A DNA stretch of 64,000 nucleotides from Candidatus Zhuqueibacterota bacterium (GCA_049322915.1 JBMOPW010000032.1:32001-96000); one strand, 5' to 3'; shown: positions 4,906 through 64,000, counted from the first letter of the stretch. The notes: generated by a model not told the origin, from the sequence alone. Made by a program: numbers and translations.

Positions 4906-4922
4906 CAAATAGGATTTGAGAG

Positions 4923-6845
4923 ATGAGAATATCAAATTTCTTCATTGGAGTCTTCAGTTTTTTTCTGACATTTGGTTTGTTTGTCGGTATAGCTAATGGA
5001 GATGAAGGTTTTGCAGGGACGCAAAGCAATTTCAATCTCGGGGTCGGTGCCAGGGCTCTCGCATTGGGAAATGCCTATGTTGCTATGCCGTTCGATGCAA
5101 CCGCCGTTTATTGGAATCCTGCCGGACTGGATTACATTCAGAGAAAAAATGTGAGTCTGTTTTATACCAATTTATTAGCAGGCGCCAAATACTTTTATTT
5201 CGGCTATGCGCATCCAACAATAAATTTTGGTTCTTTTGGATTCGGCGTAATTAGTAGTGGCGTTGGTGATATTCAAGAAACGGATAGCTCCGCTCCCATT
5301 GAATTGGGGACATTTTCTTACTCTCAGCAGGAGTTTCTTCTGTCTTATGGAAAGCAGCTTCCCTGGAATATTGCGTTAGGCGTCAATTTAAAAATTGATC
5401 ATCAAAGTATACATGGACTTACAGATACAGGCGTCGGAGCAGATTTTGGATTTTTGTATCGGCCGAATTTTACAAATTTTCTTTTGAGCGGAGTGTCCGT
5501 AGGGTTGACTGCGCAAAATTTATTCGGACCGAGACTTAAACAGATTTCTGAAACTGACATTAGTCCAATAAATATCAGGATGGGATTTGCGAAACCAATT
5601 TTAACAAATGAATGGGGAAATCAATTCACGATTTTTATGGATTTTGAACAAAGTGAGTACGAGCCATTCAAGTTCCACACCGGCACCGAATATGTTTTCA
5701 ATAATTTTGCCATGCTTCGGGTTGGGTTGAATAACAATCAAATCGCGTTTGGGGCGGGTGCAGCGATCAGCATGTTCCAGATCGATTATATGTATGGCAA
5801 ATTTTCTGATAATCCATTTGACACAAATCATCGCATTTCCTTTAGCGTAACGTTCGGGAAGTCCAAAGATGAGCTGGTGAAAATTGCTGAGCAGCGCCGA
5901 CTGGAAGAGATTCAGCGAAAAGTCGAACAGCAAAGGATTTGGGAGCGCGATGAGAAAATTTCCGAGAGCATGGATCGAGGTAAGCAATATCTCGAAATTG
6001 AAGATTATGAACGGGCATTGCGCGAGTTTAATTTCATAACAAATTATGAAAGTGAAATGCCGAATTCAACGGTGATTGCTGAAGCTCGTAAATTGTCGGA
6101 GGAGACAACTCAAAGGAGAGACGATAAGCTTAAAAAGTCTTTCGATGAAATTCGAAGCCGGAATGAAGCGGAGAAAGAGCGGAAGGAATTAGACATCTTC
6201 CTCGACCGGCAATTCGATTTAGGGCTGTCTCATTATGAAGTCGAAGAATATGAAAAAGCCATTGCCGAATGGCAAAAAATGTTGGATCGCGATCCGAATA
6301 ATGTGCTGGCCAAAGAGTGGATTCCCAAGGCTCAGGCGGATTACGAAAAGAAAATATTGTCATTGATTAACCAGGCTGATAATTTCGCACGTAAGGGCCG
6401 GTACCTGGAAGCGATCAGCGTTTTGAATAATGCCCGGATGTTGAATCCGGACGAAAAGCAGATCAATGTCATCGACTCCCGCAGTAATTCCTACAAACAG
6501 CAAATGCAATTCGATGAGCTGTTTCAGCAGGGATATCGATATTACATCACCAAAGATTATGTCAATGCTATGAATTCGTTCCAGGAAGCGCTCAAGCACC
6601 GTCCTAACAATGAACAGGTGAAAAAGTTATATACCGATGCCGAGGCACGTGCCAATGCGAAGAAAATGCGTATGACGCCGGAGATGGCTAAAAAATATGA
6701 TCGGGGGATTAATTTGTACACGGCGGGAAAATATGAGGAGGCCATTCAGATTTGGGAAGAATTGTTATTGATTCAACCCTACAACAAAGAGATTTTAGAT
6801 ACCATCGACGGGGCCAAAGAACGAAGCCGACAGCAGAAGAAATAG
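4923..6845 (+). CDS. PorV/PorQ (UPF0164)-family outer-membrane beta-barrel fused to coiled coil and TPR repeats
   Basis: Signal peptide; GVGARALALGNAYVA..DATAVYWNPAGL signature; barrel ends NHRISFSVTFG; then helical TPRs (YEKAIAEWQKMLDRDPNN, YEEAIQIWEELLLIQPYN). Confidence 0.85.
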   Translation: MRISNFFIGVFSFFLTFGLFVGIANGDEGFAGTQSNFNLGVGARALALGNAYVAMPFDATAVYWNPAGLDYIQRKNVSLFYTNLLAGAKYFYFGYAHPTINFGSFGFGVISSGVGDIQETDSSAPIELGTFSYSQQEFLLSYGKQLPWNIALGVNLKIDHQSIHGLTDTGVGADFGFLYRPNFTNFLLSGVSVGLTAQNLFGPRLKQISETDISPINIRMGFAKPILTNEWGNQFTIFMDFEQSEYEPFKFHTGTEYVFNNFAMLRVGLNNNQIAFGAGAAISMFQIDYMYGKFSDNPFDTNHRISFSVTFGKSKDELVKIAEQRRLEEIQRKVEQQRIWERDEKISESMDRGKQYLEIEDYERALREFNFITNYESEMPNSTVIAEARKLSEETTQRRDDKLKKSFDEIRSRNEAEKERKELDIFLDRQFDLGLSHYEVEEYEKAIAEWQKMLDRDPNNVLAKEWIPKAQADYEKKILSLINQADNFARKGRYLEAISVLNNARMLNPDEKQINVIDSRSNSYKQQMQFDELFQQGYRYYITKDYVNAMNSFQEALKHRPNNEQVKKLYTDAEARANAKKMRMTPEMAKKYDRGINLYTAGKYEEAIQIWEELLLIQPYNKEILDTIDGAKERSRQQKK

Positions 6846-43825: not shown

Positions 43826-43867
43826 AAAATCAGAAAATATTACATAAAAGTTGAAATGATGAGTCCC

Positions 43868-43883
43868 TGGCATACGGATTGCA
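43868..43883 (+). promoter_or_regulatory. sigma54 (-24/-12) promoter candidate
   Basis: TGGCAT-ACGGA-TTGCA with exact GG-N10-GC spacing, 60 nt upstream of the activator gene. Confidence 0.65.
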
Positions 43884-43943
43884 TATTTAGCTTTGCTTCA
43901 CGAAAGATAACTAAAAGATGAACCCCAACTACAGCCATATTCA

Positions 43944-45302
43944 ATGACGCCAGGAGCTAAAATACTAATTACTGATGATGATACTTCTATTTGCCAAATT
44001 CTCAATAAAATATTATCCGGTGAAAATTATAATGTTTGGGAAGCGCACTCCGGTGTTGAGGTGCTTCGAATGGTTTCTGAAAATGATTTCGATTTAATTC
44101 TACTCGATTTGCAAATGCCGAGCATGAGCGGAATTGAAGTCGCCCAAAGAGTCATTGCCGAACACCCCCAGATCCCCATTGTCCTCATTTCTGCCTATGG
44201 AACCGTTTCTAAAGCCGTGGAAGCGACAAAAATTGGTGTGTACGATTTTCTGGAGAAACCCCCGGATCGCGACCGGATTCTTGTCACCGTTCAGAATGCA
44301 CTTGCTCATGGTCAATTACAGAAGGAATTATCTCTTTACAAAAAGGATTATCTCGATCGGTTCAAGATGGTGGGGCAATCTCCCCAAATACAAGAAGTGT
44401 ACAGCCTCATCGAAAAAGTGGGACCGACCGAGTCTTCCATTCTCATTATGGGCGAAAATGGTTCGGGAAAAGAACTGGTAGCCCAGGCGATTCATCAATG
44501 CAGTGCACGGAAGGATCGGCCACTTGTGAAAATGAACTGCGCTGCTGTCCCTGATAACCTCTTGGAGAGCGAGCTATTTGGGCATACCAAAGGAGCATTC
44601 ACCGGCGCCTATTTTGCGAAAAAAGGCCGCATCCAGGCCGCCCATGGAGGAACTCTGCTCCTGGATGAAATAGGCGATATGAGTCCATCCGCTCAGGCAA
44701 AGGTGCTGCGCTTTTTAGAGAGCGGTGAAATTCAGCAGGTCGGGTCCACAGAAATCGCCACAGTGAATGTGCGCGTGGTCGCTGCCTCCAATAAAAATAT
44801 TCTAAAGATGGTTGAAGAAAAGTCGTTCCGTGAGGATTTATTTTATCGATTGAATGTTTTTTCAATTACCGTTCCCCCGCTCCGGGATCGGAAAGAGGAC
44901 ATCCCGCTGTTGCTGGATTATTTTATTGAAAGATGTTCGGATGCCAATGGCGTCAATCGGCCAAGGCTGTCTCCTTCAGCGCTGAATTATCTTCGTGGCT
45001 TTGACTGGCCTGGTAATGTTCGCCAACTCAGGAATTTTGTCGAGCGGTTGATGGTTATGAAAGAGGGAGATTTGATAGAGTTGAGCGCCGTGCGGCAACT
45101 GTTATCCCCAAGGGATAGACAATCGAATGTGCCGGATTCAATCCGCTCCCTCCATAATGCGCGCCAGGAATTCGAGCGCGACTATATTCTGAGTGTGCTG
45201 GAGTGCAATGAATGGCGCGTGGCGAAAGTGGCGGAAATTCTTGGCGTGGACAGAGTGAATCTATATCGAAAAATGAGGCAACTGGGAATAAGCGGGAAGT
45301 GA
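43944..45302 (+). CDS. sigma54-dependent response regulator (NtrC/AtoC/NtrX family)
   Basis: REC (ILLDLQMP); [39 protein letters not shown]; Fis-type HTH. Confidence 0.95.
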
Positions 45303-50560: not shown

Positions 50561-51211
50561 TCATTTCGATGTAACAAAAACGCTATCCACGACTGTTTTC
50601 TCAAGGTAGATCAATTTCATCACTGGCACTTCTTCCGGCACTTTATTGACCGGCAGGGGATGGTATTCCATCAGGCCCTGTTTATATCCCCACATTTCAA
50701 CGGACGTCACGTCTTCTGTTTGTTCCAGATGCATTTTAATGGGAATCCCTTTGTAGTTTCTGCGCAGGCCGCGCAACAGGGAAGCGAAAATTGCGCCCAT
50801 GGCTCGCACAGAATCCGGAGCGCTTTCGAATCGCTCCGGAGAGTCGTTGGAGTTGGCCGTGAATTTAACATTGCCGCCAAAGCTCCACAGATTCATTATT
50901 TTTTGAGCCTTGCTGCTTGGCGTGAGCAGGTAAATCCTACCGCCGGGGAATGTCCTGGCAATATCCAGCTCTCCGAACCCGTCGCCGGATAAATCGTAAA
51001 TGACCATTTTATCAATCTTATCCTCCGGGATCATGAAATCTTCCGCAAAGAAGTCGATGAGTTTTTTGTTGGTCACCGTTGTGGTTTGAACAATGGCCTG
51101 ATCGATTTGAATTTCCTGACTCTGTCCGAAGGCCTCAGCACCGAGAAAGGTGAAGAAGGCGAAAGCTGAGAGTCGTATCGCGACTTTGAATGATGTATGT
51201 TCTCGTATCAT
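50561..51211 (-). CDS. Secreted hypothetical protein
   Basis: Signal peptide (..FTFLGAEAFG); ATGA overlap with upstream TPR gene; DLSGDG loop. Confidence 0.8.
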   Translation of the reverse strand: MIREHTSFKVAIRLSAFAFFTFLGAEAFGQSQEIQIDQAIVQTTTVTNKKLIDFFAEDFMIPEDKIDKMVIYDLSGDGFGELDIARTFPGGRIYLLTPSSKAQKIMNLWSFGGNVKFTANSNDSPERFESAPDSVRAMGAIFASLLRGLRRNYKGIPIKMHLEQTEDVTSVEMWGYKQGLMEYHPLPVNKVPEEVPVMKLIYLEKTVVDSVFVTSK

Positions 51212-52680
51212 TGCTTGCTCCTGGTTTGTTTCCATTTGTTGAAATATTCTCTGGCTTCATCGTAAAGCCCGGCGCTTTTATGAGCGCGCACCATTAAGGA
51301 CAGCAGTTCATTGGTCTCATCTTCGGACAGGCCATTGGAATCGGCCAATGCTTTCTTCCCGTGAAAGATGGCCTGGTCCGGGTCGTTCCACAACAACGAG
51401 ACCAGCTCAATGTGGGCTTTGGCCCCCTGATCCCATTTGAACGAGGCGGCTTTGGTGAAATAGGCCAGCGCCAATTTTTTCTCCTGTTTGTCCCTGGCTT
51501 CAATCCCTAACCGATACAGCATGGCGCCATAGCTATCGAAAAATGGCTGAATTTCTTTCGCGGTCATTCCAAAATTTTCATAGTCCAGGGTTTCGTAGAC
51601 CAGCTTCATCCGTTCAACGGCCTGGGCCTTCTTGCCCAGGATTTCAAATTCGACAACGGCCAGCTTGTGAAAGACACTCATTTTCGCTTTTCGAGTCTGA
51701 AGCATGTTCAACAGACTCTCGCATGCCTGCGCCATGGCGTCATAGTTCTTTTCAGATTCCAGAGCGAGAATTTTATCGAACAATTCCGAGGCGCGGATAT
51801 TGCCGTCATCCCATTGAATCCATTTCACGTAATTTTCCAGGTCGGTTTTCTCCTGCGGCGTTCGAACAAATGGCTCGGCGACTTGAAACGCTTTGAGCGA
51901 GCGAGTATCGTCGTACATTCGGGCGTAGGCGTCGCCCTGGGCGTACATGTAGTAAAATAATTTGGATGTGTCGGGCGGCGTCTCAAAACTTGTCTTGAGC
52001 AACACTTTTTGGGCTTGCTGGAAATTGAGAAGCGCTTGTTCAAAATTTTTCACGGCCAATTGATTTTCAGCCAACAGCCTGAACAGTTCGTGTTCGCCTT
52101 TTTCAATGCGAGTGAGCCGCTCCAAAATTTCGATGGCTTTCTCATAATTTTTTTCAATTCCAAAAATGTGCTGCAAATTGTAATAGGCAACAGCCAGCAG
52201 GACACGGGCATTTTTATCAAAGGGATTGATTTTCACGGCTGCTTCAAGATGCTGCTGTGCCTGTTGGCAATAGGTCAGGGCCTCTTTTGCGCGTAATTCC
52301 CTTGTCCCGTTATTGGTCAGCTTTTTCCACTGGGACAGGTTTTGCGAGCCCAGATTCATCTCACGATCGAACTGCTTTTTATCTGCCGATGAAAGGCTCT
52401 TTTGATTTTTGATATCCTGCTCAAGGAATGTGCAGAACTCATCGACCTGATCCAGCCGCTTCTTTCCTTTCTGGGAAAATACATTGGCCTCGCCTTCCTT
52501 CTGAGCCGAAACAAAATTATTGTTCGCGGTTTCGATGGACAGAACAACTGTCGTGCTGTCCAGACCAGGCGGAATACTCAATTTCTTCACATGATTTCCC
52601 CCGGTGGTTGCGCAGCCGGAAAGGCCAATCAGCCACGCTCCCAACAATAATCTAATAAAAATGGAAATTGTCTGTTTCAT
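51208..52680 (-). CDS. TPR-repeat lipoprotein
   Basis: Lipobox LSGC; TPRs (LEAAVKINPFDKNARVLLAVAYY, YEKAIEILERL, YDEAREYFNKW); RBS GGAGG. Confidence 0.88.
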   Translation of the reverse strand: MKQTISIFIRLLLGAWLIGLSGCATTGGNHVKKLSIPPGLDSTTVVLSIETANNNFVSAQKEGEANVFSQKGKKRLDQVDEFCTFLEQDIKNQKSLSSADKKQFDREMNLGSQNLSQWKKLTNNGTRELRAKEALTYCQQAQQHLEAAVKINPFDKNARVLLAVAYYNLQHIFGIEKNYEKAIEILERLTRIEKGEHELFRLLAENQLAVKNFEQALLNFQQAQKVLLKTSFETPPDTSKLFYYMYAQGDAYARMYDDTRSLKAFQVAEPFVRTPQEKTDLENYVKWIQWDDGNIRASELFDKILALESEKNYDAMAQACESLLNMLQTRKAKMSVFHKLAVVEFEILGKKAQAVERMKLVYETLDYENFGMTAKEIQPFFDSYGAMLYRLGIEARDKQEKKLALAYFTKAASFKWDQGAKAHIELVSLLWNDPDQAIFHGKKALADSNGLSEDETNELLSLMVRAHKSAGLYDEAREYFNKWKQTRSKQ

Positions 52681-52785
52681 TTTTATTATTCACCTCCACG
52701 TTTGTACCTGAAACTATTTCGTTCGAATGTTACTTTTGCATCGGATGCCATGCCATCCATCGTTGAAAGGATGGCCCAATCGTCC

Positions 52786-53934
52786 TTACTTTTTGGATTG
52801 TGTTCTCCACCATGACCAGAAAATCTGGTAAAATGAAGCGGCGCGATCACCAGGCGCAGAACGCGAACTGATCAGCGATTTCATTTCATTCGCTTCGCGG
52901 ACGACATTGCCAATGGTGAGGTAGTTGCTTTCTTCCCGAATTCCGTTATCTTTCAACATCGTGTAATCATCGCTTTCTACGAGGCACACCCGAAGAAGCA
53001 TTTCGATTTCATTGCACGACAGCAGGAAATGATAGTGACGGCCGCTATAGGTGAAAGGAACGGCGGAGGATAAATCGCCGCTCTGATGACCCATCTCATA
53101 CGCAATGAGTTTCGGAATGGGGCCGGGGTGGGCTTTCATCCACTTTATCAATTCATGCAGATCGAGCGTCGCTGTGCCACCGCCGGACCCGGAAGGAAGG
53201 GAAATGCCAGCGCCAGAATTCGCTCCACCGCCTCGGGTCGTTCGACCGCCGCCTGCCCCGGAAAGTCCGGTACCTCCTGCGCCGGAACCAATGCCAGCGC
53301 CAAATCCTGAACCCTGGCCAGAGCCGGCGCCGGCGCCTGAACCTGCGCCATAGCCAGTCCCTGAACCGCCTCCGCCAAGGGTGACTTTCGGCCCGCTGGA
53401 GGTTCCGCTGCCACCTGACCGTCGTGACGGCGCCATGGATGAATTGCGATTTGTAATTTCACTGGATATGTTCAGATCATCATAACTTCTGCTAGACCGG
53501 GAGACATTGGTGGAGATGTTTGACGATTCAGTCTGCGAGCCGCCAGAGCCTCCGCGCTTGCCGGCTTTAGCCTCGCGGGAGATGAAATTTTTCATATCAA
53601 ATCCCTGAACAATCGAAGCGACGCTGATTTCAGATTTTGACTTTTGAACGGACGGTGCATTGTGTTTGCTCTGGACTCTGGTAGAACCTGCCGATTGCTT
53701 GCTGATGCGGATTTCATTTCTCGTTGTCGTGAGCATTTTTGGCGGCGTGAAGGTCAATTTAATCAGTTCCTTCATCTCCAACTTCACATCATTCAATTTC
53801 TGCTTTTCCGGTAGCATGGTAAACGAAAATATCTGAGCCATCAAATAAAGGAGCGCCAAGACTGTCAGAGTGATCAGCCCTGACAGTACATGCAGATTTT
53901 CCTGCCGGTTGATGTAATTAATTATAACTTTCAT
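52786..53934 (-). CDS. TonB/TolA-like membrane-anchored protein with Gly/Ser-rich linker and unrecognised C-terminal domain
   Basis: Single N-terminal TM; long G/S/A-rich low-complexity stretch; ~125 aa C-terminal globular domain; overlaps exbD stop by 17 nt. Confidence 0.7.
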   Translation of the reverse strand: MKVIINYINRQENLHVLSGLITLTVLALLYLMAQIFSFTMLPEKQKLNDVKLEMKELIKLTFTPPKMLTTTRNEIRISKQSAGSTRVQSKHNAPSVQKSKSEISVASIVQGFDMKNFISREAKAGKRGGSGGSQTESSNISTNVSRSSRSYDDLNISSEITNRNSSMAPSRRSGGSGTSSGPKVTLGGGGSGTGYGAGSGAGAGSGQGSGFGAGIGSGAGGTGLSGAGGGRTTRGGGANSGAGISLPSGSGGGTATLDLHELIKWMKAHPGPIPKLIAYEMGHQSGDLSSAVPFTYSGRHYHFLLSCNEIEMLLRVCLVESDDYTMLKDNGIREESNYLTIGNVVREANEMKSLISSRSAPGDRAASFYQIFWSWWRTQSKK

Positions 53935-54316
53935 AGTTCAATGTCTTTTCTATTTTATTTCGATGACAAATATCAAACACATCGACTAATTTTTGCATGA
54001 TGCTTGATTTGTGCGGTTCAATGGTGATGATGAGTTTTTCATTGTACCTTTTGTAAAGATCGTTTTTGCTGACGAGCAGGTTTTCCAGATCTGATAAGGA
54101 TTGAACCTGAGTCGATTTGCCGCCGTCATCCAGCTTGAATGAGTTCTGGAAAATGGTGAGGCGGGCATCGTGGAACATGTATTTTACCGATTCATCCGAC
54201 ATGGCGGAGGACAGGTCCACGTAATCAGTTTTAAGCCGACTGATGTTGATGAAGCCCAACAGCACGATCAACGCCACATCGATGAGCCTGATCATCAGGC
54301 GCGTATTTGAATTCAT
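53918..54316 (-). CDS. ExbD/TolR-family protein 2
   Basis: IRLIDVALIVLLGF TM with conserved Asp; IITIEPHKSSIMQKLVDVFDIC. Confidence 0.85.
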   Translation of the reverse strand: MNSNTRLMIRLIDVALIVLLGFINISRLKTDYVDLSSAMSDESVKYMFHDARLTIFQNSFKLDDGGKSTQVQSLSDLENLLVSKNDLYKRYNEKLIITIEPHKSSIMQKLVDVFDICHRNKIEKTLNYESYN

Positions 54317-54326
54317 AACTCCCTCT

Positions 54327-54731
54327 TCATTCTGTCATTGACGTCATAACATCCAGGCCTTTGGCGAGACCCAAATCCCGGCACAACCTGACGACGGCCA
54401 GGCCCTGCTCGACCGGCGAATCCCAGTCTGCGCGTATTCTAACGCCTAACACAGCGCCCTTGCTCTCCGCCTGTCGCGCTTTCTCGAATAAATAGTTCTG
54501 AAGCTGTTCAATGCGCGTCATGGTGAGCATCCCGCCATCAGCGTGATAGGTGCCATCATTCTTTACCCCGATGACAATGGTGTTAGCGTTCTCCGGCGCG
54601 CCTTCTGAGGCTTCCGTGCTCCTGGGCGGATCGATCAGCGTTGTCGTGTCGATTTGAGAAATGGCGATGAACCCGAAAAGGAGGATGAAGACGACGTCGA
54701 TCATCCGAATCATTAATGAAGTTTTGCCCAT
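54327..54731 (-). CDS. ExbD/TolR-family protein 1
   Basis: IRMIDVVFILLFGF TM with conserved Asp; VRIRADWDSP..AVVRLCRDLG. Confidence 0.88.
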   Translation of the reverse strand: MGKTSLMIRMIDVVFILLFGFIAISQIDTTTLIDPPRSTEASEGAPENANTIVIGVKNDGTYHADGGMLTMTRIEQLQNYLFEKARQAESKGAVLGVRIRADWDSPVEQGLAVVRLCRDLGLAKGLDVMTSMTE

Positions 54732-54756
54732 AGAATGTGCCTTTTCATTTTTGTGC

Positions 54757-54799
54757 AAAAAAACGGCTCTCCCGAAAGTGGCATGCTTTCGGGAGAGTC
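54757..54799 (-). terminator. Intra-operon terminator-like hairpin
   Basis: Minus strand GACTCTCCCGAAAG-7 nt-CTTTCGGGAGAGCC followed by GTTTTTTT. Confidence 0.75.
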
Positions 54800-54811
54800 A
54801 GTCGAACGAAT

Positions 54812-56791
54812 TTACTTCAGGTACAGAATTCGTTTGCTTGCTTTGAAATTATCTGTGGTCATCCGATAGAGATAGATGCCGCTGCCCAAATCCTGTCCGG
54901 CGTCGTTGCTGCCATCCCAGGTAATTGTATGAGCGCCGGCGTTTTGAACTCCGGAAACCAGACTTTTCACTTTTTGACCCATCAAATTGTAGATATCAAT
55001 TGTCACATTTCCTGTGTGATTCATGAAATAGGCGATGTTGGCTTTCCCATTGAATGGATTGGGATAGGCCGCGCCCAGATTATGTCTCTCAGGAAGATTC
55101 TCGTCTTTGGAAAAATCAGAAACAGAGGTGCTCGATGCGATTGCAGTCAGCGGACCGTAGAAGCTGGCGGTGCTTCCTGTGATTTCCACATCAGCGATTT
55201 TATAATAATAGGTTTGGCCGGATTCAACATCGGCATCTGTGAATGAATAATGATGCATCGCGGATGAGTTGCCCGAAACCGGGATCACTTCGGGATTGAC
55301 TATTTTGTATTCACCGTCAGCAGCGTCGCTGCGGTAAATGTCGTATCCCATATTTTCGGTCTCGGATTGGCTGGTCCAGTCTAGCATGATTCCGCCAAAG
55401 TGGAACACATATTTGAAAGAATCAATTTCAACGGTGACAAGGGGTTCGCGATCGGTCACAATGAATCCAAAATCGACGTCCAGTCTGGCTTCGCATTCGG
55501 CCAGAACAATCGGCGCGCTCGGATCAATGCTGGTGGTCAATGCGACATTGGTCTCGCTCATGTACGGGTGATCAATGTCGACAAAGTAGGTGCCGGCATT
55601 CAGATTCTGGAACAGATAAAAACCGAGTCGGTTGGTGCGCACGCTGTCCATGAAGGTATCAGCATCCGGCTCATACATATTATTGTCATTATCCTTGTAC
55701 AGCGAGACTTTTACTGAGGGAAGTCCAGCTTCCATCATATCACGAAGCCCGTTGGAATTTTTGTCATAGAAAATTCTATCGCCAATGCTGGCGCAGCCGG
55801 TCGCTTCGAGCGGAAGTTTGAACGCGATCATATTCCAGACGCCGCTCAGCGCTGGCAGTTGCGGATTGTCCATTTGAGATTCCAACTGGAAAGAAGCCCA
55901 GTCCTCTTCAGAACGCACCGGGACAAGAAATTCAACCATGGACCAGCGATGCCGAATTCCGATACCATCGGAAAGCGGATTGGTATCGATGGCGGGATCT
56001 GAATTGGACGAATTGATGTAATCCACGGCGCCTTGTGTATCAGCGATATTATCATCCGGTGTTGCGCCGAAGCCCATTTTGTACCAGATGGCCGATGCGC
56101 TGGCTCGTTCGTAGACGCCGGCAAATATTTTCACCGAACCCCATCGCTCGAAGCGGTTGCCTTCAATCGGGAAGGTCACTGTTTTGGTCAATGGAGGCTG
56201 GCTGGCAGCATTGAAATAATCCAGGCCATCAGCGATCCAGATATTCGATTCAGGCAGATTGGGCAGGCTGTAAATCGCCACAAGTCCGCCGCCGTAGATA
56301 CCGCCGCTGGTGGGACGAACCGGGAGTTGAATGTCGTCCACTTTATAACGGTGGTCGCCGAGTACTAAAACATCGCTCGCATCAGCGCGATAGGTGAAAT
56401 TCAACGTGGTTGCTTCCTGCGAATAGCCAATGCACGTCGCATTTTTCGTCACGGTGAGGCCTTCATCGTTGCTCAACGTGATGATGATGTCCGTGAGTTG
56501 CGCCGGAGTCACATTGGAGAACGCACTGAAATACACGTAGCCGGCGACAATTTCAGCATCTTCAGGAATTTTCATTAATGCAGTGGCTTCCCCGCGGAGG
56601 CCAAGTGAACCAAGACTGGTGACGCCAACATCATATTTACCGGTAAATACCGGCAGCGTAATGTTCAATTGTTCATTGCCATCAGCGTAGCCCATTGATG
56701 CAACAAATGTCACTGACATGAGCAAGCCGATTAGCCCCATGGCCACTTTCCGGCGCCATTTTCCTTTTTGTAACGTGTTAGACTTTTTCAT
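54812..56791 (-). CDS. Secreted protein with SdrD B-like domain, FN3-like domain and type A T9SS/FlgD C-terminal domain
   Basis: Signal peptide; SIGDRIFYDKNSNG..EAGLPSVKVSLY..GFYLFQNL.AGTY..DVDFGF; WTSQSETENMGYDIYRS; AYPNPFN..IYNLMGQKV..WDGSNDAG..SGIYLYRM. Confidence 0.88.
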   Translation of the reverse strand: MKKSNTLQKGKWRRKVAMGLIGLLMSVTFVASMGYADGNEQLNITLPVFTGKYDVGVTSLGSLGLRGEATALMKIPEDAEIVAGYVYFSAFSNVTPAQLTDIIITLSNDEGLTVTKNATCIGYSQEATTLNFTYRADASDVLVLGDHRYKVDDIQLPVRPTSGGIYGGGLVAIYSLPNLPESNIWIADGLDYFNAASQPPLTKTVTFPIEGNRFERWGSVKIFAGVYERASASAIWYKMGFGATPDDNIADTQGAVDYINSSNSDPAIDTNPLSDGIGIRHRWSMVEFLVPVRSEEDWASFQLESQMDNPQLPALSGVWNMIAFKLPLEATGCASIGDRIFYDKNSNGLRDMMEAGLPSVKVSLYKDNDNNMYEPDADTFMDSVRTNRLGFYLFQNLNAGTYFVDIDHPYMSETNVALTTSIDPSAPIVLAECEARLDVDFGFIVTDREPLVTVEIDSFKYVFHFGGIMLDWTSQSETENMGYDIYRSDAADGEYKIVNPEVIPVSGNSSAMHHYSFTDADVESGQTYYYKIADVEITGSTASFYGPLTAIASSTSVSDFSKDENLPERHNLGAAYPNPFNGKANIAYFMNHTGNVTIDIYNLMGQKVKSLVSGVQNAGAHTITWDGSNDAGQDLGSGIYLYRMTTDNFKASKRILYLK

Positions 56792-56847
56792 GGTCCATCT
56801 CCTTAATTGTTAAAAGTGCGATTAGTTAGTATGTGCTGGTTGTATGT

Positions 56848-58215
56848 TTATCGAATCAGATTGAGCAAGCCCCGGTGAAGAACCTGATTTCCATCTGAAA
56901 TCATGAACAGGTAACATCCCGGCAGCATCAGGTTTCCTGCTTCATCGCGACCATTCCAGAATCGTTCGCCATTGGATAAATTTTTTATTTCAAGACCTGA
57001 CCTGTTCATAATCGAAATAACCCAGTTTGTTGGTGTTGTGTCGCCTTTTTTGAACTCGACCCAATCGTTGATCCCGTCGTCATTGGGCGTAAATGGATTC
57101 GGTGTGACTTCGATCTCCGGTTCATCCGGCGGTTCCTCCGGATCAATGGGTGGATCCGGTGGATCAGGCGGATCAGGTGGATCGACCGGCGGATCCACGG
57201 GCGGATCAATGGGAACAGTTTCGTACGGCGCGATGTAGCTGGATGTATCGGCGCTGGTGTTGGTGTTCACATTCACATCGATGCGAACGTAGCGTCGCTT
57301 ACCATCCTTTGCCGGATTGTGGGTCGAATAGGTGATCCGATAGCGATGGTGGAGGAGCTTGGAAATGGCTCGATAAATTTCCTCGAGATCGCTGGACGTG
57401 GGGCTGTAGTAATAAAGCCCACCGGATTGGTCAGCCAAATCTTTCAGAATATTTTCCTCCGGACTATTTGGATTCAAACCCAGTCCTATCGTGAAGACCC
57501 GAATCTCATGCGAAAGAATGGCAGTCAGCGCCTCGGCGTAGCTGTACTGGCTATCTTTGTCCGCGCCATCGGTCATCAAAATGATAGCTCTGTTTTTGAT
57601 GCTGCTGGTGAAAAGATAGACTGAATGGATCAGCGCATCGAATATGGCAGTCCCACCCATCGACTCCATCCGATTGATAGCCGCGTTGAGCGTATCTTTC
57701 ACGGTTGTAAAGTCACTGTCAGTCTGCGGCTGATGCGAGAAACTGACCAGGGCGGATTGGTCTTCACCCTGCATCAGATTCACGAACACGCTGGCGGCTT
57801 TCTTCGAATCTTCGATGGGCTGACCGCGCATACTGCCGCTTCGATCCAGCGTCAGAATCACGCTGAAGCCAATTTCATTCGACGTCAATTCTTCGACCAG
57901 AATGGGCAACTCCCGCGTATTGTCTTCCCTCACTTCAAAATTGTCTTCATCCAGTTCGCCGATGACAAAGCCGGCGTCGTTCGTGACAGTGACGAGGGAG
58001 ACGATTTTTGGGAATTCGGCGGCCGAAACCTCGTTATAGATTAACGTCAGACTATCCAGTTGAGTCGCCTGAATGATGCTGTCGTCCAGTTCAGCGCTCA
58101 CCGCCGGTGGGACCAGGTGTGTTTCGGTGATCCAGGCCGGGAAAAGCAGTATCACAACTGCCATTCCGATGAGGATAATCCGTCTGTTTTTGTATGTCCA
58201 ATATGTTGATTGCAT
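56848..58215 (-). CDS. VWA-domain protein with Pro/Asp linker and type B (gliding-motility-associated) C-terminal domain
   Basis: MIDAS LDRSGSM..GGTAIFDA..MTDG; PNPFTPNDDGINDW..IMNRSG..FWNGRDEAG..PGCYLF. Confidence 0.88.
   Translation of the reverse strand: MQSTYWTYKNRRIILIGMAVVILLFPAWITETHLVPPAVSAELDDSIIQATQLDSLTLIYNEVSAAEFPKIVSLVTVTNDAGFVIGELDEDNFEVREDNTRELPILVEELTSNEIGFSVILTLDRSGSMRGQPIEDSKKAASVFVNLMQGEDQSALVSFSHQPQTDSDFTTVKDTLNAAINRMESMGGTAIFDALIHSVYLFTSSIKNRAIILMTDGADKDSQYSYAEALTAILSHEIRVFTIGLGLNPNSPEENILKDLADQSGGLYYYSPTSSDLEEIYRAISKLLHHRYRITYSTHNPAKDGKRRYVRIDVNVNTNTSADTSSYIAPYETVPIDPPVDPPVDPPDPPDPPDPPIDPEEPPDEPEIEVTPNPFTPNDDGINDWVEFKKGDTTPTNWVISIMNRSGLEIKNLSNGERFWNGRDEAGNLMLPGCYLFMISDGNQVLHRGLLNLIR
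57119..57213 (-). repeat. Pro-Asp (DPP) tandem repeat linker
   Basis: Encodes PIDPPVDPPVDPPDPPDPPDPPIDPEEPPDEP; GGATC recurs at 9-12 nt spacing. Confidence 0.85.
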
Positions 58216-58264
58216 GATCACTGCACCTTTGTTTGCTGAAGGCAATTTTAAAAAAAGAGTTACA

Positions 58265-59197
58265 TTAATAATTCGTTTCATAAGCCATGCCCATCGAGCG
58301 ATCGACGCGCGGTTTCTTCTGTGTCTGATAGTTCATCTCAATGGTTTGAATTTCCATATCGCTTTCTTCCATTTGGCTGGATTGCGTCGATGGCCCTTTG
58401 TTTTCGTGTATCAGTAAAACCTGACGAATCGCTTCAGAGCGCTCGGATAGCTGATTGAGTTGAGCATTGAACATTGTGAAAAGATAGGTTGAGAAAAAGT
58501 TCAGCGCGATACTGATGACAATTCCGACCAGCGTGGTGACGAGAGCGATACTCATCCCCTGAAGAATTGTGGGGCCGTCCATTTTTCCCGAATGGAAGGT
58601 CAGGAATATCCCCCACACAGTACCTAACAAGCCCAAAGCTCCCGATGTATCGGAAAGATAATTGATGATCCGGTTGAACGATTCGAACGAGTCCCGTTCT
58701 GATGCCACAAATTTATTGACGTCATTTCCAATGGGTTCGGCGCGATGGGTTTTTTCGAATGTCACCAGTATCTGATGAAAAAGACGCCATGCCCGCGTGG
58801 GATTCTTGCCCTGACTCATGCGCAATATCCGTTTCAAATCGTTGAGTTTAATTTTTCCCTGCATCAGGACTTGTGAGCGGGATTTATCCCGATACTCGAA
58901 CAAAGCCCGGTAGCTAATGAGCATGATTCCGCCTGCCGTGATCAATACAAATGGCCAGAAGGTCCAGTCGCACCATTCAATTAGTTTCCAGGCAGTCAGT
59001 TTGGCGCCTTGTTCCGATTGGACTGTCGCAGTGCTGTTGACGGCTTTCTGAGCTTCGGCTGTGGTGCGGGTTGTTTGTTTTGCATTGGCCTGCATGGGAG
59101 TCAAACTGATGAGCAGTCCGCTCACTCCCAAAATCACGACGGACACAACCCATGTGAAGAATGACTTTCTGTTGTTGCTGCCTATGTGCTTTTCCAC
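58265..59197 (-). CDS. MotA/TolQ/ExbB proton channel family protein
   Basis: GALGLLGTVWGI and GMSIALVTTLVGIVISI helices; N-terminal signal-like extension. Confidence 0.92.
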   Translation of the reverse strand: MEKHIGSNNRKSFFTWVVSVVILGVSGLLISLTPMQANAKQTTRTTAEAQKAVNSTATVQSEQGAKLTAWKLIEWCDWTFWPFVLITAGGIMLISYRALFEYRDKSRSQVLMQGKIKLNDLKRILRMSQGKNPTRAWRLFHQILVTFEKTHRAEPIGNDVNKFVASERDSFESFNRIINYLSDTSGALGLLGTVWGIFLTFHSGKMDGPTILQGMSIALVTTLVGIVISIALNFFSTYLFTMFNAQLNQLSERSEAIRQVLLIHENKGPSTQSSQMEESDMEIQTIEMNYQTQKKPRVDRSMGMAYETNY

Positions 59198-59257
59198 GAT
59201 GTATCTCCTCTTTTTCAGAATGAATGAGTACTTTATATTAGCAAAAAAATTAATTTC

Positions 59258-60955
59258 TTATGGCGCCATTTTATTGACCTGTAAATTTTTCTCCTGCTTG
59301 AATTGGAGAACGACTGTCCGATTGATTCGCGTTACCGTCACTTTTTTCGATGGAGACGATTTGGCTTGGCCCCGCAATGATTTGATTGATAAGTCGCAGG
59401 TATACTCACCAGCGGGAACCAGTTCGCCCCAGTTGTCTTTCCAATCCCATAGCAGTTGCTCGGGCAGCTTCTCCGTTCCCCGAATTGTGCGAATGGTTTT
59501 ATTGTGACTGTTTTTAATTTCCAGGGTCCACTCTTTGACCTGCCGCACACGGCCGCTCACCATCGGTGAGATAGAAAGATGTTCGTGCGAACAGCGGGGC
59601 TTGCTGTGCGACTGATTCTCCTGGCCGGAGTAAAAGCCTGTCAGACTGACTGTCCCGGTGGAGTTGAGCGAGGCCACGCCAACCCGGTCGCCGGAGACGA
59701 TTCCGTTCTTTTGCAGATAAGATTTCAAAGCTCGCGCATCTTCCATTGAGGATTCTTCTGTTTGAAGAATGAGGCTCAGGCCGGGATGTTGTTTCAATTT
59801 ATTCCGAATTTCAATTCCTAATTTGACGTGTCGTTCCTGGCGAATTTTTAGAGTCTCGGAAGGACTCAATGGGCCGGTCGGGACGATGAGCAGATTTCGA
59901 AATGCGCCATCAGTTTTCAGATACTCCGGCGCTAACTCTGCAATGTGTTCTAATTGAGAAGGATACAGATCCGCCGGCATGCTTCGCACCACCTTCTCCT
60001 CGAAAATTTGCATGAACGGGGTCGAGAGAAGCAATTCCGGCTCACCGATATCCGGTCCCCGATCGAAGATATGCGTGTAAATGGCCTCGTGAGAACCCAT
60101 GGAAACAGCGGCCATATTCTGGCGGGGTAAATCTAAACCGTATTGAAGTTTGTTGTTTTCCGAAAGGCTGAACTGAATTTCCATTTTAAAGGGCATGGTA
60201 TTTTCAAATGACAATTGCACAAGTCCCCAGCCTTCGCGCTGGAGCGAAACAGCCAGACCATAATGCACATTCATTCCGTCATTTTGCAGAAGCACGGTCG
60301 GGGTAATATAACCGAAGCTGTAACCGACTGCTGCGGAGATTTCCCGCAGTAGCGGCGCCGCAGTCTGATAACCCATGTCCGGCTGATTTACATGGTTGAC
60401 GCCTATGCCGATGCTCCAATTGCCGGGATTCCAAAATGCGCCCATGCCGAAATTAAGGCCATTTTTACCCAGGCTGCCGGCGAGCAACGGATCGATTGCA
60501 TGCGCCTCGGAAAAATTGTCGCGGGAAAAACCAAATCTTACCAGACCAATTTTCAGTCCAACACCCAACTGGGATGCAATTTTCCGACTGACGAGAAGCG
60601 AGCTGTTCAATTCCGAATAAATGCCAGCCGAATAGTATCGCAGATCAGCGCCCAGCCCCAGTTCCAGCGGCAGTAAAAACGGAAAACTAACGCTGACATG
60701 ACTTTCGTTGATGCCGAAAGAGTTATCCGGCACAAAACCAATGTGAAATGAGCGTATTCCGAGAGAGACCTGACCATATTGAAATGAAACCATGGCCGGA
60801 TTCACTTCCGAAATCCAGGGATGGGATTTTCCAACGACATTGTTAATGTCGTAGGTTTGCGCATCGACAGCGGTGTTCAGGATTGCAGTGAGCATGAACA
60901 GAGCGAAGCATGCAACAAGGGCAAACTTTATCATTGTTAATTTCTTATTCAGCAT
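59258..60955 (-). CDS. PorP/SprF-like outer-membrane beta-barrel fused to C-terminal FlgD-like domain
   Basis: Signal peptide; VNPA motif; LNFGMG..SIGIGVNHVNQPD; SMGSHEAIY barrel end; C-terminal WTLEIKN..IRTIRG..LLWDWKDNWGELVPAGEY. Confidence 0.78.
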   Translation of the reverse strand: MLNKKLTMIKFALVACFALFMLTAILNTAVDAQTYDINNVVGKSHPWISEVNPAMVSFQYGQVSLGIRSFHIGFVPDNSFGINESHVSVSFPFLLPLELGLGADLRYYSAGIYSELNSSLLVSRKIASQLGVGLKIGLVRFGFSRDNFSEAHAIDPLLAGSLGKNGLNFGMGAFWNPGNWSIGIGVNHVNQPDMGYQTAAPLLREISAAVGYSFGYITPTVLLQNDGMNVHYGLAVSLQREGWGLVQLSFENTMPFKMEIQFSLSENNKLQYGLDLPRQNMAAVSMGSHEAIYTHIFDRGPDIGEPELLLSTPFMQIFEEKVVRSMPADLYPSQLEHIAELAPEYLKTDGAFRNLLIVPTGPLSPSETLKIRQERHVKLGIEIRNKLKQHPGLSLILQTEESSMEDARALKSYLQKNGIVSGDRVGVASLNSTGTVSLTGFYSGQENQSHSKPRCSHEHLSISPMVSGRVRQVKEWTLEIKNSHNKTIRTIRGTEKLPEQLLWDWKDNWGELVPAGEYTCDLSIKSLRGQAKSSPSKKVTVTRINRTVVLQFKQEKNLQVNKMAP

Positions 60956-61052: not shown

Positions 61053-61069
61053 GGCAAGAAGAATACCAG
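61053..61069 (-). promoter_or_regulatory. sigma54 promoter candidate upstream of the 9-gene cluster
   Basis: Minus strand CTGGTAT-TCTTC-TTGCC with GG-N10-GC spacing, ~100 nt before ATG 60955. Confidence 0.4.
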
Positions 61070-61462: not shown

Positions 61463-61501
61463 AAAAAAAACGCTCCCTGGTATTCGACCGGGAGCGTTTT
61501 T
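61463..61501. terminator. Terminator downstream of M14 peptidase genes
   Basis: AAAAAAAACGCTCCC-loop-GGGAGCGTTTTT. Confidence 0.8.
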
Positions 61502-61521: not shown

Positions 61522-63333
61522 TTATTTCAACACAATCTCTTTTTGATGAACTCCGCCCTTTTGACAATCCAATTTCACCTGAACCTTTCCGCCGCCCTCG
61601 ACGAGAAATTCATACTGGACTTCGGCGTTGCCGGGTATGCCCCGTGTGAGCTTCAGGTTTTTCAGATCCTTTTGATCGATAAGGGTCACATCGCTATCCT
61701 CAGCTTCGAGAAAGTAACGCCGAAATTGAGCCGGTACACTGCTGAATCGCGAGGCCTTATTGAGGCCGGCGGCCATAACTTTCACGTTTCCATCGATGGA
61801 TAGCTGATCCGGTCGCTGCACTTTTCGCTCGATGGCGGCCGCGGACATGGTGGGCATGAGCCGCTCGTTGTAAATGCTCACGTTCAGTTTGAAAAGATTG
61901 TTCGCCAATTTTTCGTAACTCAATTCTTTGATAACTGGCAGAGGCATTTCATACGCATGCAGCAGGCAGAAAGCCATGTTGCGGTGGCATAGCTCCTCCA
62001 GCAGCCAGGTGGGCGGCACGCGACCGCTCAGCTTGGTCTCGTCGCGATCGATCGTCACTTTTCCTAACTGCGGGTGATTGATGTCGTGCATTGGAATAAA
62101 TATATTTTGCATGTCAATATATTTGTCGAAAAATTCTCGCTCCTCCTGAGTGTCCTCGCCATTGTTGTCGAAATCAGCGCGGGATGTCCACAACTCGTTG
62201 GAATAGGAATAAATGCCAAGCAGGTCATGGGTGAAATCAATGAATCCACCCCAGACGGAATAGAGTCCGCTCCAGATGACGATGTAGCGGTACTTGTCAA
62301 TAATTTTTTCACCCTTCTTGCCAATTTCATCATAGACTGAGACATCGGCGCGTTGATACTCGCCGTGCAATTCAACGCCCGGGCCTCGTAGAATCATCCC
62401 GCCGGAATTGTGAAACGCCTGCACCCCGGCGATGTTGGGATGCGAATACAGAAAATCGCGGGTGCGCTGCGATTCGATCCAGGTGAATGGATAATCACCG
62501 GCGCCTCCCTGAATCGATTTCGGTTGCCAGAATGAAGCGAAATCGCGATTGGGATCGTAACCGCCACCGCCATCTTCATTGTATCGCCCATCGCCATCGT
62601 TATCGATACCCTCGGAACCGATAAATTTGTAGTCGCCCACCTCATCTTTTTTACCTTCAATGTTTTTTTGAATGGGCACCAGCCGATCCCCAATATCGCT
62701 CAATCGATGCGTCCCTTGTCCGGGTTGAACCTTCATGAACATGGAGCCGACTTCTCCGTCGTTATCCAGATCCTCCGGGCCATCTTCGTCGTAGAGACCG
62801 TCGTCGTCGCTGTCATATGGATATTGCCCGGAACGCGCCGATGCGCCGTTGTGCAGCCACAGGTCTCTCCCATCGGGATTGACAGATGGAAAAATGTAAA
62901 ACACCCGCTGGTCGACCATCTTTTTCACGTATTCGTTATAGGGATAATTTTCCATCAGGTACCAGATGGTATAGAGACAGACCTCGCCGCCCTGAATTTC
63001 GTTGCCATGAATGTTGGCGTCGATGTACATGGCGCTCTTTTTCATTTCATCGCCTGTGTCCGGATTGTTGATGGTCATGTACCACATCTCCCGCCCCTGA
63101 AATGATGTGCCAATGGACCGCAGTTTGAGAAATTTGGGATAGGCCTGTTCCAGTTTTCGAAGCGCAGCTTCCATCTCTTTCCAATCATGATACCGATTGA
63201 ATTGAAGATCGACGTTTCGTGTTTTCCATGTGCGCGGAAGGTAGTCCTGAGCCGGCAGCGTGGCGGCGCTCATCATCGCCACCATAGCCAGGAGAAGAAT
63301 GCGATGTATAAGATGTGTTGTTTTTAATTTCAT
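61522..63333 (-). CDS. Secreted M14 zinc carboxypeptidase
   Basis: Signal peptide; NIHGNE (HxxE), NPDGR, DPNRDF, AFHNSG; Asp-rich DxDxDG insertions. Confidence 0.92.
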   Translation of the reverse strand: MKLKTTHLIHRILLLAMVAMMSAATLPAQDYLPRTWKTRNVDLQFNRYHDWKEMEAALRKLEQAYPKFLKLRSIGTSFQGREMWYMTINNPDTGDEMKKSAMYIDANIHGNEIQGGEVCLYTIWYLMENYPYNEYVKKMVDQRVFYIFPSVNPDGRDLWLHNGASARSGQYPYDSDDDGLYDEDGPEDLDNDGEVGSMFMKVQPGQGTHRLSDIGDRLVPIQKNIEGKKDEVGDYKFIGSEGIDNDGDGRYNEDGGGGYDPNRDFASFWQPKSIQGGAGDYPFTWIESQRTRDFLYSHPNIAGVQAFHNSGGMILRGPGVELHGEYQRADVSVYDEIGKKGEKIIDKYRYIVIWSGLYSVWGGFIDFTHDLLGIYSYSNELWTSRADFDNNGEDTQEEREFFDKYIDMQNIFIPMHDINHPQLGKVTIDRDETKLSGRVPPTWLLEELCHRNMAFCLLHAYEMPLPVIKELSYEKLANNLFKLNVSIYNERLMPTMSAAAIERKVQRPDQLSIDGNVKVMAAGLNKASRFSSVPAQFRRYFLEAEDSDVTLIDQKDLKNLKLTRGIPGNAEVQYEFLVEGGGKVQVKLDCQKGGVHQKEIVLK

Positions 63334-63398
63334 GTTATTATTCCTCCAGATGGTGTAGACAGATAAAAGTTACCGATGATTTTGACCCAACGGATTGG

Positions 63399-64000
63399 TT
63401 ATGGTAGCTTCACCGTTGTCTGAAATTCTCCGCCACCCTGGCGAGCCCAAAGCGCGATATCAACTTTCTGGCCCGGCGGAGAAATGATAATCCACGTGTA
63501 TTCTTTTTCAGCGCCGGCTTCCAGATTGTTCAGATCGTATCGTTTCTGGCCTCCGAAAAGTTTCATGTCCTTTTCGTTTTCGAATTTCAATCGGGTCACA
63601 ATCGGATACAGGTTTCGACTCTTCTGCCCCATCTCCGTCGCGTAAGGAAATTTTCCAGTGTTGCGAAGGGTGACCTTCACTTCGTACAGGTTAGTGGATA
63701 ATTTCCTGGTTTGCGGCGCATCCATTTTTATTTCAGCAAACTGGGATGCGAGATACAGCGCGAATTTGGTGTGACTCTGACAGAGGGAATCGATGAGAGC
63801 GGAAGGGGCGTTTGTTCGGATGTACGGATAGAACCCGCCAATTTCCACGTCGCCAAGCTGCTGATGCTGAAATGTTTTCCACGGCAGGAAGCCAATGCCA
63901 TTGTTCTTCTCATCGACCCATTTCAGCCATCGCTGGTCAGTTCCGCTCGCATCGGCTTTTTCGCCTTCCGCGCCGGCCGGGCGCGCGCCGGGGAAGGTGC
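63399..64000 (-). CDS. C-terminal part of a second M14 carboxypeptidase paralog (5' truncated)
   Basis: Frame open to window end (..FLPWKTFQHQQLGDVEIGG..); aligns with neighbour (HPQLGKV, final Ig-like domain ending GG..V.L). Confidence 0.8.
   Translation of the reverse strand, partial: TFPGARPAGAEGEKADASGTDQRWLKWVDEKNNGIGFLPWKTFQHQQLGDVEIGGFYPYIRTNAPSALIDSLCQSHTKFALYLASQFAEIKMDAPQTRKLSTNLYEVKVTLRNTGKFPYATEMGQKSRNLYPIVTRLKFENEKDMKLFGGQKRYDLNNLEAGAEKEYTWIIISPPGQKVDIALWARQGGGEFQTTVKLP

Follow-up and report, generated by a model that had tools for sequence, protein, structure and literature searches.

A conserved nine-gene operon of candidate division KSB1 links a PorP/SprF-like barrel and type IX secretion cargo to an ExbB/ExbD-family stator: a candidate adhesin-dedicated envelope machine

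Introduction

To our knowledge, all known 5:2 envelope proton motors (Ton, Tol, Mot, Agl and GldLM) tie an inner-membrane stator to a specific output. Here we describe a nine-gene operon that may belong among them, located at positions 50561-60955 on the minus strand of a 64,000-nucleotide stretch of DNA from a Candidatus Zhuqueibacterota bacterium (GCA_049322915.1, JBMOPW010000032.1:32001-96000), hereafter the window. The window belongs to contig C32 of a 96%-complete host genome of 6.25 Mb, and the proteins of the locus have close homologues whose label is candidate division KSB1. The operon encodes a PorP/SprF-like outer-membrane barrel, type IX secretion system (T9SS) cargo proteins, a stator of the ExbB/ExbD kind and three further envelope proteins, here denoted g7, g8 and g9.

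The described systems that come closest differ in what the stator drives. The anchor of TonB is defined by the Ser/His (SHLS-type) motif of the TonB/TolA membrane helix together with a Pro-rich spacer, and TonB operons of bacteria of the Fibrobacteres-Chlorobi-Bacteroidetes (FCB) group and of Vibrio are commonly arranged as ExbB-ExbD-ExbD-anchored protein-tetratricopeptide repeat (TPR) protein. The Tol operon is ordered tolQ-tolR-tolA-tolB-pal-cpoB and the T9SS operon porP-porK-porL-porM-porN. In Bacteroidia, the job ascribed to GldLM/PorLM is energising the exit of cargo and shuttle from SprA.

Substrates of the T9SS that carry a C-terminal domain (CTD) of type B need cognate PorP/SprF-like shuttles, to which they are genetically linked, according to two reports (PMC12618676; PMC9143113). 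In the Agl-Glt gliding machinery of Myxococcus xanthus, the literature cited here describes the TolQ-like AglR with a TolR-like AglQ/AglS heterodimer (PMC11761067), the GltABH barrels with the TPR protein GltC at their periplasmic face and the VWA adhesin CglB (PMC11761067; PMC9946355), as well as GltG and GltJ, which are membrane-anchored and have long disordered periplasmic segments (PMC11761067; PMC9946355). At the level of titles and abstracts, we found no published account of a cassette such as the one described below, none that joins the T9SS and KSB1, and no linkage of ExbB/ExbD, g7, g8 and g9 described for the carrier pairs of Bacteroidota.

Results

Nine co-oriented genes join T9SS sorting parts to a stator

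The first-pass annotation of the window, made from its sequence, had proposed nine co-oriented and tightly spaced genes in which T9SS sorting parts are joined to a stator of one ExbB and two ExbD proteins. The list of open reading frames (ORFs), together with Pfam and NCBIfam searches, bore out the order and the domains. Transcription would run from g1, the PorP/SprF-like barrel (59258..60955, from an ATG start, with a longer TTG frame to 61057), through g2, a divergent stator protein of the ExbB/TolQ/MotA family (58265..59197), to g3, a VWA protein with a type-B T9SS CTD (56848..58281), and g4, a DUF3344 and SdrD_B protein with a type-A CTD (54812..56791). These are followed by two ExbD/TolR paralogues, g5 or exbD1 (54327..54758) and g6 or exbD2 (53918..54316), then by the anchored orphan g7, a candidate force transducer (52786..53934), the TPR lipoprotein g8 (51208..52680) and the secreted orphan-family protein g9 (50561..51235), all on the minus strand. 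Tight spacing was likewise found, with two 17-nt gene overlaps (58265-58281 and 53918-53934); an ATGA overlap at 51208-51211 holds provided that g9 starts at its own ninth codon. The combination itself also stood, since the locus encodes a PorP/SprF barrel, cargo with type-A and type-B CTDs, one ExbB and two ExbD proteins bearing the membrane Asp. As had been stated at the outset, the locus gave no match to a Plug, TonB_dep_Rec, TolB or OmpA/Pal domain, and neither did the 27 further large ORFs in the window. Judged by its conservation, the nine-gene set is a real conserved operon.

The module is conserved as a unit within KSB1 and reaches a second phylum

Conservation of the gene set as a unit, on which the first-pass annotation had staked its proposal, was seen in 20 of 20 orthologous loci, in a paralogous locus of the host and in two genomes of another phylum. 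The 20 loci are those with full-length barrel orthologues in KSB1 families f1, f4, f8 and f10, with genes counted by tblastn and blastp. All show the same module order within unrelated flanks, with exceptions for single genes in genomes G066 and G031. The barrel, the type-B CTD ORF, a VWA protein, a type-A CTD and the g7 C-domain were found in every locus (20/20 each); g8 and g9 were found in 19/20, the one locus lacking both being cut by a contig end. An exbB gene directly after the barrel and a pair of exbD genes were each present in 18/20.

The loci of G066 and G031 (L063 and L064, of one genus) carry a canonical-type ExbB (121 bits) after the cargo, and the first 300 residues of their g7 are unrelated to those of the other loci, whereas the g7 C-domain, g8 and g9 are still 44-57% identical. 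Here the motor end is swapped and the output end is kept, which supports a modular transducer served by an exchangeable motor.

For the flanks, about 58 ORFs with at least 150 residues were listed, and 45 of these, belonging to 19 loci, were scanned. Two TonB-dependent receptors were present, both in one genus and both divergently oriented, and no TolB, Pal or OmpA was detected among these 45 ORFs. Thus, homologues of the module are not routinely adjacent to receptors (2/19 flank-checked loci) or to tolB-pal, an arrangement that would have made the locus an ordinary uptake or Tol system. A flank ORF of 641 aa in G031 (L064:2126-4051) matches Thiol_cytolysin (109.6 bits) and is unrelated to the operon.

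A barrel match was detected in 62 of 151 KSB1 genomes (48 of the 105 high-quality ones) and a g9 profile match in 55 of 151. Each of the 55 g9-positive genomes is also one of the 62 with a barrel match, and 2-4 copies are found in many genomes. Two unpublished genomes, G144 and G088, are counted as positive in both figures; leaving them out gives 60 and 53 of 149, and nothing else reported here depends on them.

The host itself has a second, diverged module on contig C7, with 20-39% identity, in the order type-B CTD protein (1527 residues), PorP_SprF barrel (590 residues), ExbB (525 residues, with a terminal Big_1 domain), two ExbD, g7-like and g9-like protein. This module (C7:290000-308000, L078) is preceded by a secretin gene and followed by a cyanophycin-synthase-N-like gene and genes for two Response_reg+DUF4388 proteins. 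Searching with the g9 profile yielded 129 cluster representatives at E<=0.001 among 1.84 billion, one of which comes from a Balneolales metagenome-assembled genome; for the 20 g9-family representatives that were traced, KSB1 and Balneolales are the only sources named. In the Balneolales genome the order is TPR protein, FG-GAP type-B cargo, barrel, ExbB with Big_1, ExbD, ExbD, g7-like protein, g8-like TPR protein and g9-like protein. Its barrel has no Pfam match and is 23-26% identical over the full length. Among 101 genomes sampled from the phylum to which Balneolales belongs, the g9 profile matched 2, and the second of these, G187, shows the same order.

The barrel is a divergent PorP/SprF member paired with type-B cargo

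Protein g1 matched PF11751 (PorP_SprF) at 48.8 bits, which passes the cut-off of 22.3, and its orthologues matched at 34.1 and 48.6 bits. Against TIGR03519 it reached 57.8 bits, below the cut-off of 90.55. Homologues of g1 in KSB1 carry PorP/SprF names. The barrel occupies approximately residues 50-295 and is followed by a conserved tail of about 270 residues, with a weak FlgD_ig match (20.7 bits, under the cut-off of 27). In the ESM Atlas, the tail was placed near FlgD-Ig/OmpA-type clusters with scores of 0.77-0.81; scores for the tail and for the g7 C-domain were all below the 0.9 bar and are therefore leads only. From these family matches, g1 is classed as a divergent PorP/SprF member with an added tail.

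The neighbouring g3 contains a VWA domain (70.5 bits) with a MIDAS-type motif, DRSGS, seen by eye, and a CHU_C domain (PF13585; 39.5 bits against a cut-off of 27). It scores 35.6 bits against the type-B model TIGR04131, above the cut-off of 35. Its true start is probably internal, as orthologues align from residues 19-72. In g4, DUF3344 (30.3 bits), SdrD_B (52.3 bits) and Por_Secre_tail (PF18962; 43.6 bits, cut-off 27) were detected, and the type-A model TIGR04183 scores 46.9 bits over a cut-off of 23.

A CHU_C protein with a type-B CTD stands beside the barrel in 23/23 loci, namely the 20 orthologous loci, C7, Balneolales and G187. Since type-B CTD proteins depend on neighbouring PorP/SprF shuttles, we read g1 and the type-B protein as a carrier-cargo pair, in which the g1 barrel presumably carries g3. 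The arrangement resembles SprB/SprF of Flavobacterium johnsoniae and PG1035/PorP of Porphyromonas gingivalis, where a PorP_SprF barrel gene also lies beside a CHU_C/TIGR04131 protein. It differs from such pairs in the tail of about 270 residues on the barrel and in the constant linkage to ExbB/ExbD and g7-g9.

A type-A CTD ORF occupies the g4 position in 20/20 orthologous loci; the modules of C7, Balneolales and G187 do not have it. In the host family, the type-B CTD is fused to VWA, in one to three tandem copies, and the type-A CTD is borne by the DUF3344/SdrD_B protein. In the other families the type-B CTD belongs to a small protein, after which comes a VWA-cohesin(-dockerin) protein that has 830-970 residues and bears the type-A CTD. 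Hence the VWA and SdrD-B substrates that the first-pass annotation had assigned to the machine as its own are present in this locus, but they are not fixed parts: the particular cargoes are the variable parts of the module, and what is new in it is that a carrier-cargo pair is invariably linked with a stator plus g7, g8 and g9.

The stator resembles ExbB/ExbD and lies outside the Ton and Tol equivalogs

Protein g2 matched MotA_ExbB (PF01618) at 57.2 bits against a cut-off of 22.9. It fell far under the NCBIfam equivalog cut-offs of both TolQ (TIGR02796; 31 against 221 bits) and ExbB (TIGR02797; 16.2 against 206.2 bits), in which it differs from the Ton and Tol stators. By these scores, g2 belongs to the ExbB/TolQ/MotA stator family and is not ExbB or TolQ proper. 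The first ExbD, g5, matched ExbD (PF02472) at 48.1 bits; its start is probably the ATG 27 nt within the TTG frame (54731), as orthologues begin at residue 10. The second, g6, reached 23.5 bits, just below the cut-off of 25.4, with orthologues and paralogues passing at 38.9 and 41.0 bits. The transmembrane Asp is kept in both ExbD paralogues in 15/15 validly called sequences and aligns with that of the canonical ExbD of the host. Conservation of this residue in both proteins fits a working heterodimeric axle like that of AglQ/AglS, as described in PMC11761067.

g7 has the topology of a potential periplasm-spanner and a C-terminal domain with no detected family

The annotation had called g7 TonB-like. 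This description held for the topology, which by eye comprises an N-terminal hydrophobic helix and a Gly/Ser-rich stretch, and it did not hold for the sequence features that define TonB. No family was detected for g7 at E<=0.01 in Pfam and NCBIfam, TonB_C (PF03544) included, whereas the canonical TonB of the host does match TonB_C, and none of 85 close g7 homologues has a precomputed Pfam domain. The His in the membrane helix is unconserved across 13 aligned sequences, and the spacer, by eye, is Gly/Ser-rich and not Pro-rich.

The C-terminal 142 residues of g7 were modelled with AlphaFold2 from 30 aligned sequences, with a predicted local distance difference test score (pLDDT) of 86.6 and a predicted template-modelling score of 0.83. 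The model consists of a pair of helices, an antiparallel sheet of six strands and a last helix, and a Foldseek search with it found nothing in the PDB at E<=0.001. A wide VIA search gave a top Z of 6.6 (TipC2; rmsd 3.8 A over 117 aligned residues), which is within noise, and the ESM Atlas contained one TonB_C cluster with a template-modelling score of 0.40, under the bar.

Protein g8 matches TPR families in Pfam, has an LSGC lipobox by eye and is 29% identical over its full length to its Balneolales counterpart. Three tandem g8-like TPR genes lie elsewhere in the host (C20:239283-243286). For g9, no Pfam or NCBIfam family was found, and its 113 close homologues are all unnamed or 'hypothetical'. 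As judged by profile and alignment, g9 is a small orphan family and is among the best-conserved proteins of the operon. Its AlphaFold2 model has a pLDDT of 89.4. Foldseek gave no match for this model, and the best VIA hit had a Z of 4.7; the VIA list was occupied by matches to the N-terminal helix, so that the globular part was barely probed. A complex prediction with the g1 tail (residues 296-565), mature g9 and the g7 C-domain scored 0.02 (mark 0.32; run without controls), which is neutral on binding.

The module is not the general T9SS motor of KSB1

The host genome contains SprA (893.6 bits summed) and PorV, with one PorV above the cut-off and about 30 PorV-like paralogues below it. Type-A CTD matches are very many, at approximately 200 tblastn rows. 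A set of models for GldL, GldM (three of them) and GldN, including TIGR03513, TIGR03517, PF12081 and PF12080, found nothing in the host, and the GldK model gave generic FGE-sulfatase matches only (best 128 bits against a cut-off of 350, on C34). The GldK-like gene on C34 was considered as the head of a hidden gldLMN set and rejected, its neighbours being a CsgG/TPR protein and a giant CTD protein. The search of the host thus agreed with what the annotation had anticipated: SprA and PorV are present, and GldK, L, M and N are undetected.

Across the KSB1 sample, SprA was detected in 148/151 genomes and GldM (TIGR03517) in 0/151. GldM models work elsewhere, with 25/101 (TIGR03517) and 23/101 genomes positive in the phylum that holds Balneolales; the GldL model was used without a positive control. 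The two genomes of that phylum in which the module occurs are SprA-positive, and GldM was detected in neither.

The annotation had also suggested that ExbBD stands in for GldLM. As a general replacement this did not survive the counts, as the module occurs in 55-62 of the 151 KSB1 genomes, nearly all of which have SprA; the module is absent from 89-96 of 151, nearly all of which bear SprA. This absence, together with the multiple copies per genome, each with its type-B cargo, suggests a cargo-dedicated accessory, and from its distribution we read the module in this way and not as the general T9SS engine of the phylum. Like GldLM/PorLM, the operon would tie a motor driven by the proton-motive force (pmf) in the inner membrane to T9SS outer-membrane parts, the tie being genetic, and it opens with a PorP-type barrel. 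It differs in that no GldL or GldM match exists in the host genome, in that its stator is of the ExbB/ExbD family and in that g7 is without GldM domains.

A separate canonical ExbB-ExbD-TonB_C set lies just downstream of sprA in the host (C4:92551-101577, L076). We considered this set as a power source for SprA and rejected it, as Exb/TonB genes follow sprA in 0/16 other KSB1 genomes. In 10 of these 16 genomes (L085-L100), the gene immediately after sprA encodes an M28 peptidase.

A probable sigma-54 promoter precedes the operon

A sigma-54-type -24/-12 element, TGGTATTCTTCTTGC, is located at 61054..61068 on the minus strand, about 100 nt upstream of the g1 ATG. With two mismatches allowed, the sigma-54 pattern occurs at chance level in the window (58 seen, 61 expected). 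The strict form TGG[CT]A[CT]-N5-TTGC, in contrast, recurs in 19 of the 21 loci, the window included, at a distance of up to 400 nt upstream of the barrel gene; of the other two, one has a near form and one has none. By our own arithmetic, the strict form is expected by chance at about 0.002 per 460-nt stretch, and its recurrence makes a sigma-54 promoter likely. The conserved motif therefore places the operon under likely sigma-54 control. About 5 kb beyond the operon end, at 41288-45302, lie genes for a histidine kinase and for a response regulator that is sigma-54-dependent (Sigma54_activat, 227 bits), and a one-mismatch sigma-54 site at 43868-43882 lies immediately before the response-regulator gene. 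This regulator is a possible activator of the operon, though the flanks are unconserved in other genomes.

Between the type-A cargo gene g4 and exbD1 lies a 12-bp GC-rich hairpin with a T-run (54757..54797, minus strand). A similar CCTCCCGA...TCGGGAGG hairpin is present in 5/6 loci of the host family f1 (the window and L047-L051); L048 has a different strong hairpin, and the CCTCCCGA...TCGGGAGG form was not seen in the loci of other families. The element may be an attenuator or an mRNA-stabilising element that tunes the ratio of cargo to motor.

Discussion

We propose that the operon encodes a machine that is driven by the pmf and acts on a carrier of the PorP type together with its type-B-CTD adhesin, a proposal to which we give an even chance. 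Under sigma-54 control, the operon would produce an accessory, envelope-spanning machine that serves a particular cargo. The general T9SS would export the type-B-CTD protein, here the VWA adhesin, and the cognate g1 barrel would capture it and hold it at the surface, as for the pairs of Bacteroidota. In the inner membrane, ExbB and the ExbD1/ExbD2 heterodimer would form a proton-driven stator of the 5:2 type, and g7, as a membrane-anchored protein with about 200 residues of flexible linker and a new domain at its C-terminus, would carry the work of the motor across the periplasm. The 270-residue tail of g1, the TPR lipoprotein g8 and the periplasmic g9 may together form the platform at the outer membrane, and the output would be mechanical work on the carrier-adhesin complex, that is, pulling, lateral movement, unmasking or release. 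Such a machine would be a compact functional counterpart of Agl-Glt/CglB in Myxococcus or of GldLM/SprB in Flavobacterium.

The likeness to Agl-Glt comprises the stator of one plus two subunits, the barrels with a TPR protein, the anchored spanner and the VWA adhesin, and it is a likeness of layout, not shown homology. Agl-Glt has at least 17 proteins, spanners like the TonB C-terminal domain, barrels that are not of the PorP type, a lipoprotein, CglB, that is not a T9SS substrate, and cytoplasmic coupling, none of which has a counterpart here. The known kind to which the machine would belong is that of the 5:2-family envelope motors, and, as far as the encoded families indicate, the transducer family and the outer-membrane target would be new.

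Several points weigh against the proposed mechanism. The coupling of the motor to the barrel is suggested by gene linkage, and the assignment of g7 as a candidate force transducer comes from its topology, with no TonB_C detectable in it. The tail of g1 is assumed to be periplasmic by analogy with PorP topology. No solved fold is close enough to the models of the g7 C-domain and g9 to indicate a function for these predicted structures. The loci of G066 and G031 (2/20) have no ExbD within them. Finally, the terminator-like hairpin between the cargo genes and exbD1 means that the two halves of the operon may be expressed unequally.

The same gene set could serve secretion itself, with the motor and g7 taking the type-B cargo and the PorP-like shuttle off SprA and having no later role at the surface. 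The host, with SprA and PorV but no detected GldK, L, M or N, would suit such a loading engine, as would the KSB1 counts for GldM and SprA given above, where models that work elsewhere leave GldM without a match, and the two module-bearing genomes of the second phylum, which show the same combination. The gene order of barrel, stator, spanning protein, lipoprotein and periplasmic protein also recalls porP-porK-porL-porM-porN. However, secretion runs without the module in the 89-96 KSB1 genomes that are SprA-positive and lack it. Furthermore, GldM is undetected in most sampled genomes of both phyla, so that its lack in the module-bearers says little, and in the second phylum these number two. 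The presence of several copies in a genome is at least equally compatible with one machine per adhesin. We consider a dedicated loading engine unlikely.

A Ton-type uptake system, in which the barrel would act as a gated channel for import of a substrate that is caught at the surface by the VWA, cohesin and SdrD-type proteins and taken in with the help of the motor, would share with the locus its ExbB, two Asp-bearing ExbD, anchored potential periplasm-spanner and downstream TPR protein, a layout that resembles TonB operons, and a receptor does lie near 2/19 flank-checked loci. Both of those loci, however, come from one genus with the receptor gene divergent, and the locus departs from Ton in having no TonB_C, Pro-rich spacer, conserved membrane-helix His, receptor or Plug domain, its outer-membrane partner being a T9SS carrier barrel. 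That barrel is of the PorP/SprF family, known as carriers of type-B CTD proteins (PMC12618676), and the host already has its separate canonical ExbB-ExbD-TonB_C set; uptake is accordingly given a small chance. Equally improbable, in our estimate, is a tether of the Tol-Pal kind, in which pmf would hold or remodel a link between inner membrane, peptidoglycan and outer membrane where T9SS adhesins are anchored, stabilising the envelope without moving the adhesin. The stator, spanning protein, periplasmic protein and TPR outer-membrane lipoprotein do parallel tolQ-tolR-tolA-tolB-pal-cpoB, and the tail of g1 has its weak leads to FlgD-Ig/OmpA-type clusters, below the bar. Yet neither a TolB beta-propeller nor an OmpA-like Pal was detected in the locus or in the 45 flank ORFs, and a general tether would leave unexplained the strict linkage to type-B cargo and a PorP-like barrel in 23/23 loci.

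If the proposed mechanism is correct, the cassette would add a new motor output, a T9SS carrier barrel that holds an adhesin, with a new family in the place of TonB/TolA, and would offer a compact nine-gene system for studying the delivery of force to a surface protein. It also bears on how export is energised in KSB1, where SprA and very many CTD proteins are found with GldM undetected. More broadly, and with somewhat less than an even chance, FCB bacteria that have the T9SS translocon and no detectable GldLM may possess a new class of machine, in which an Exb-type 5:2 stator works through the new transducers g7, g8 and g9 on PorP carriers whose adhesins are moved, tensioned or loaded. This would amount to a minimal, modular engine of one motor per adhesin, and possibly to an independent origin of adhesin-based motility.

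Genes around the operon

The upstream edge of the operon is marked by a hairpin with a T-run (61463..61496, minus strand; cgctcccgg...ccagggagcg, then eight T), at which the upstream M14 carboxypeptidase gene ends. The automated hairpin scan gave only the plus-strand form of this hairpin, and the minus form was read directly. Two M14-type carboxypeptidase-like genes lie upstream (61522-63998), the first conserved solely within the same genus. The remainder of the 64,000-nt window consists of housekeeping genes. At its beginning (1-6845), a type-A CTD forms the end of a giant protein whose frame runs in from outside the window and which has at least 1631 aa; it is followed by a 640-aa protein that matches a PorV-like barrel at its N-terminus and has TPR repeats, a SpoIIE/HATPase_c_2/TPR protein and a STAS protein.

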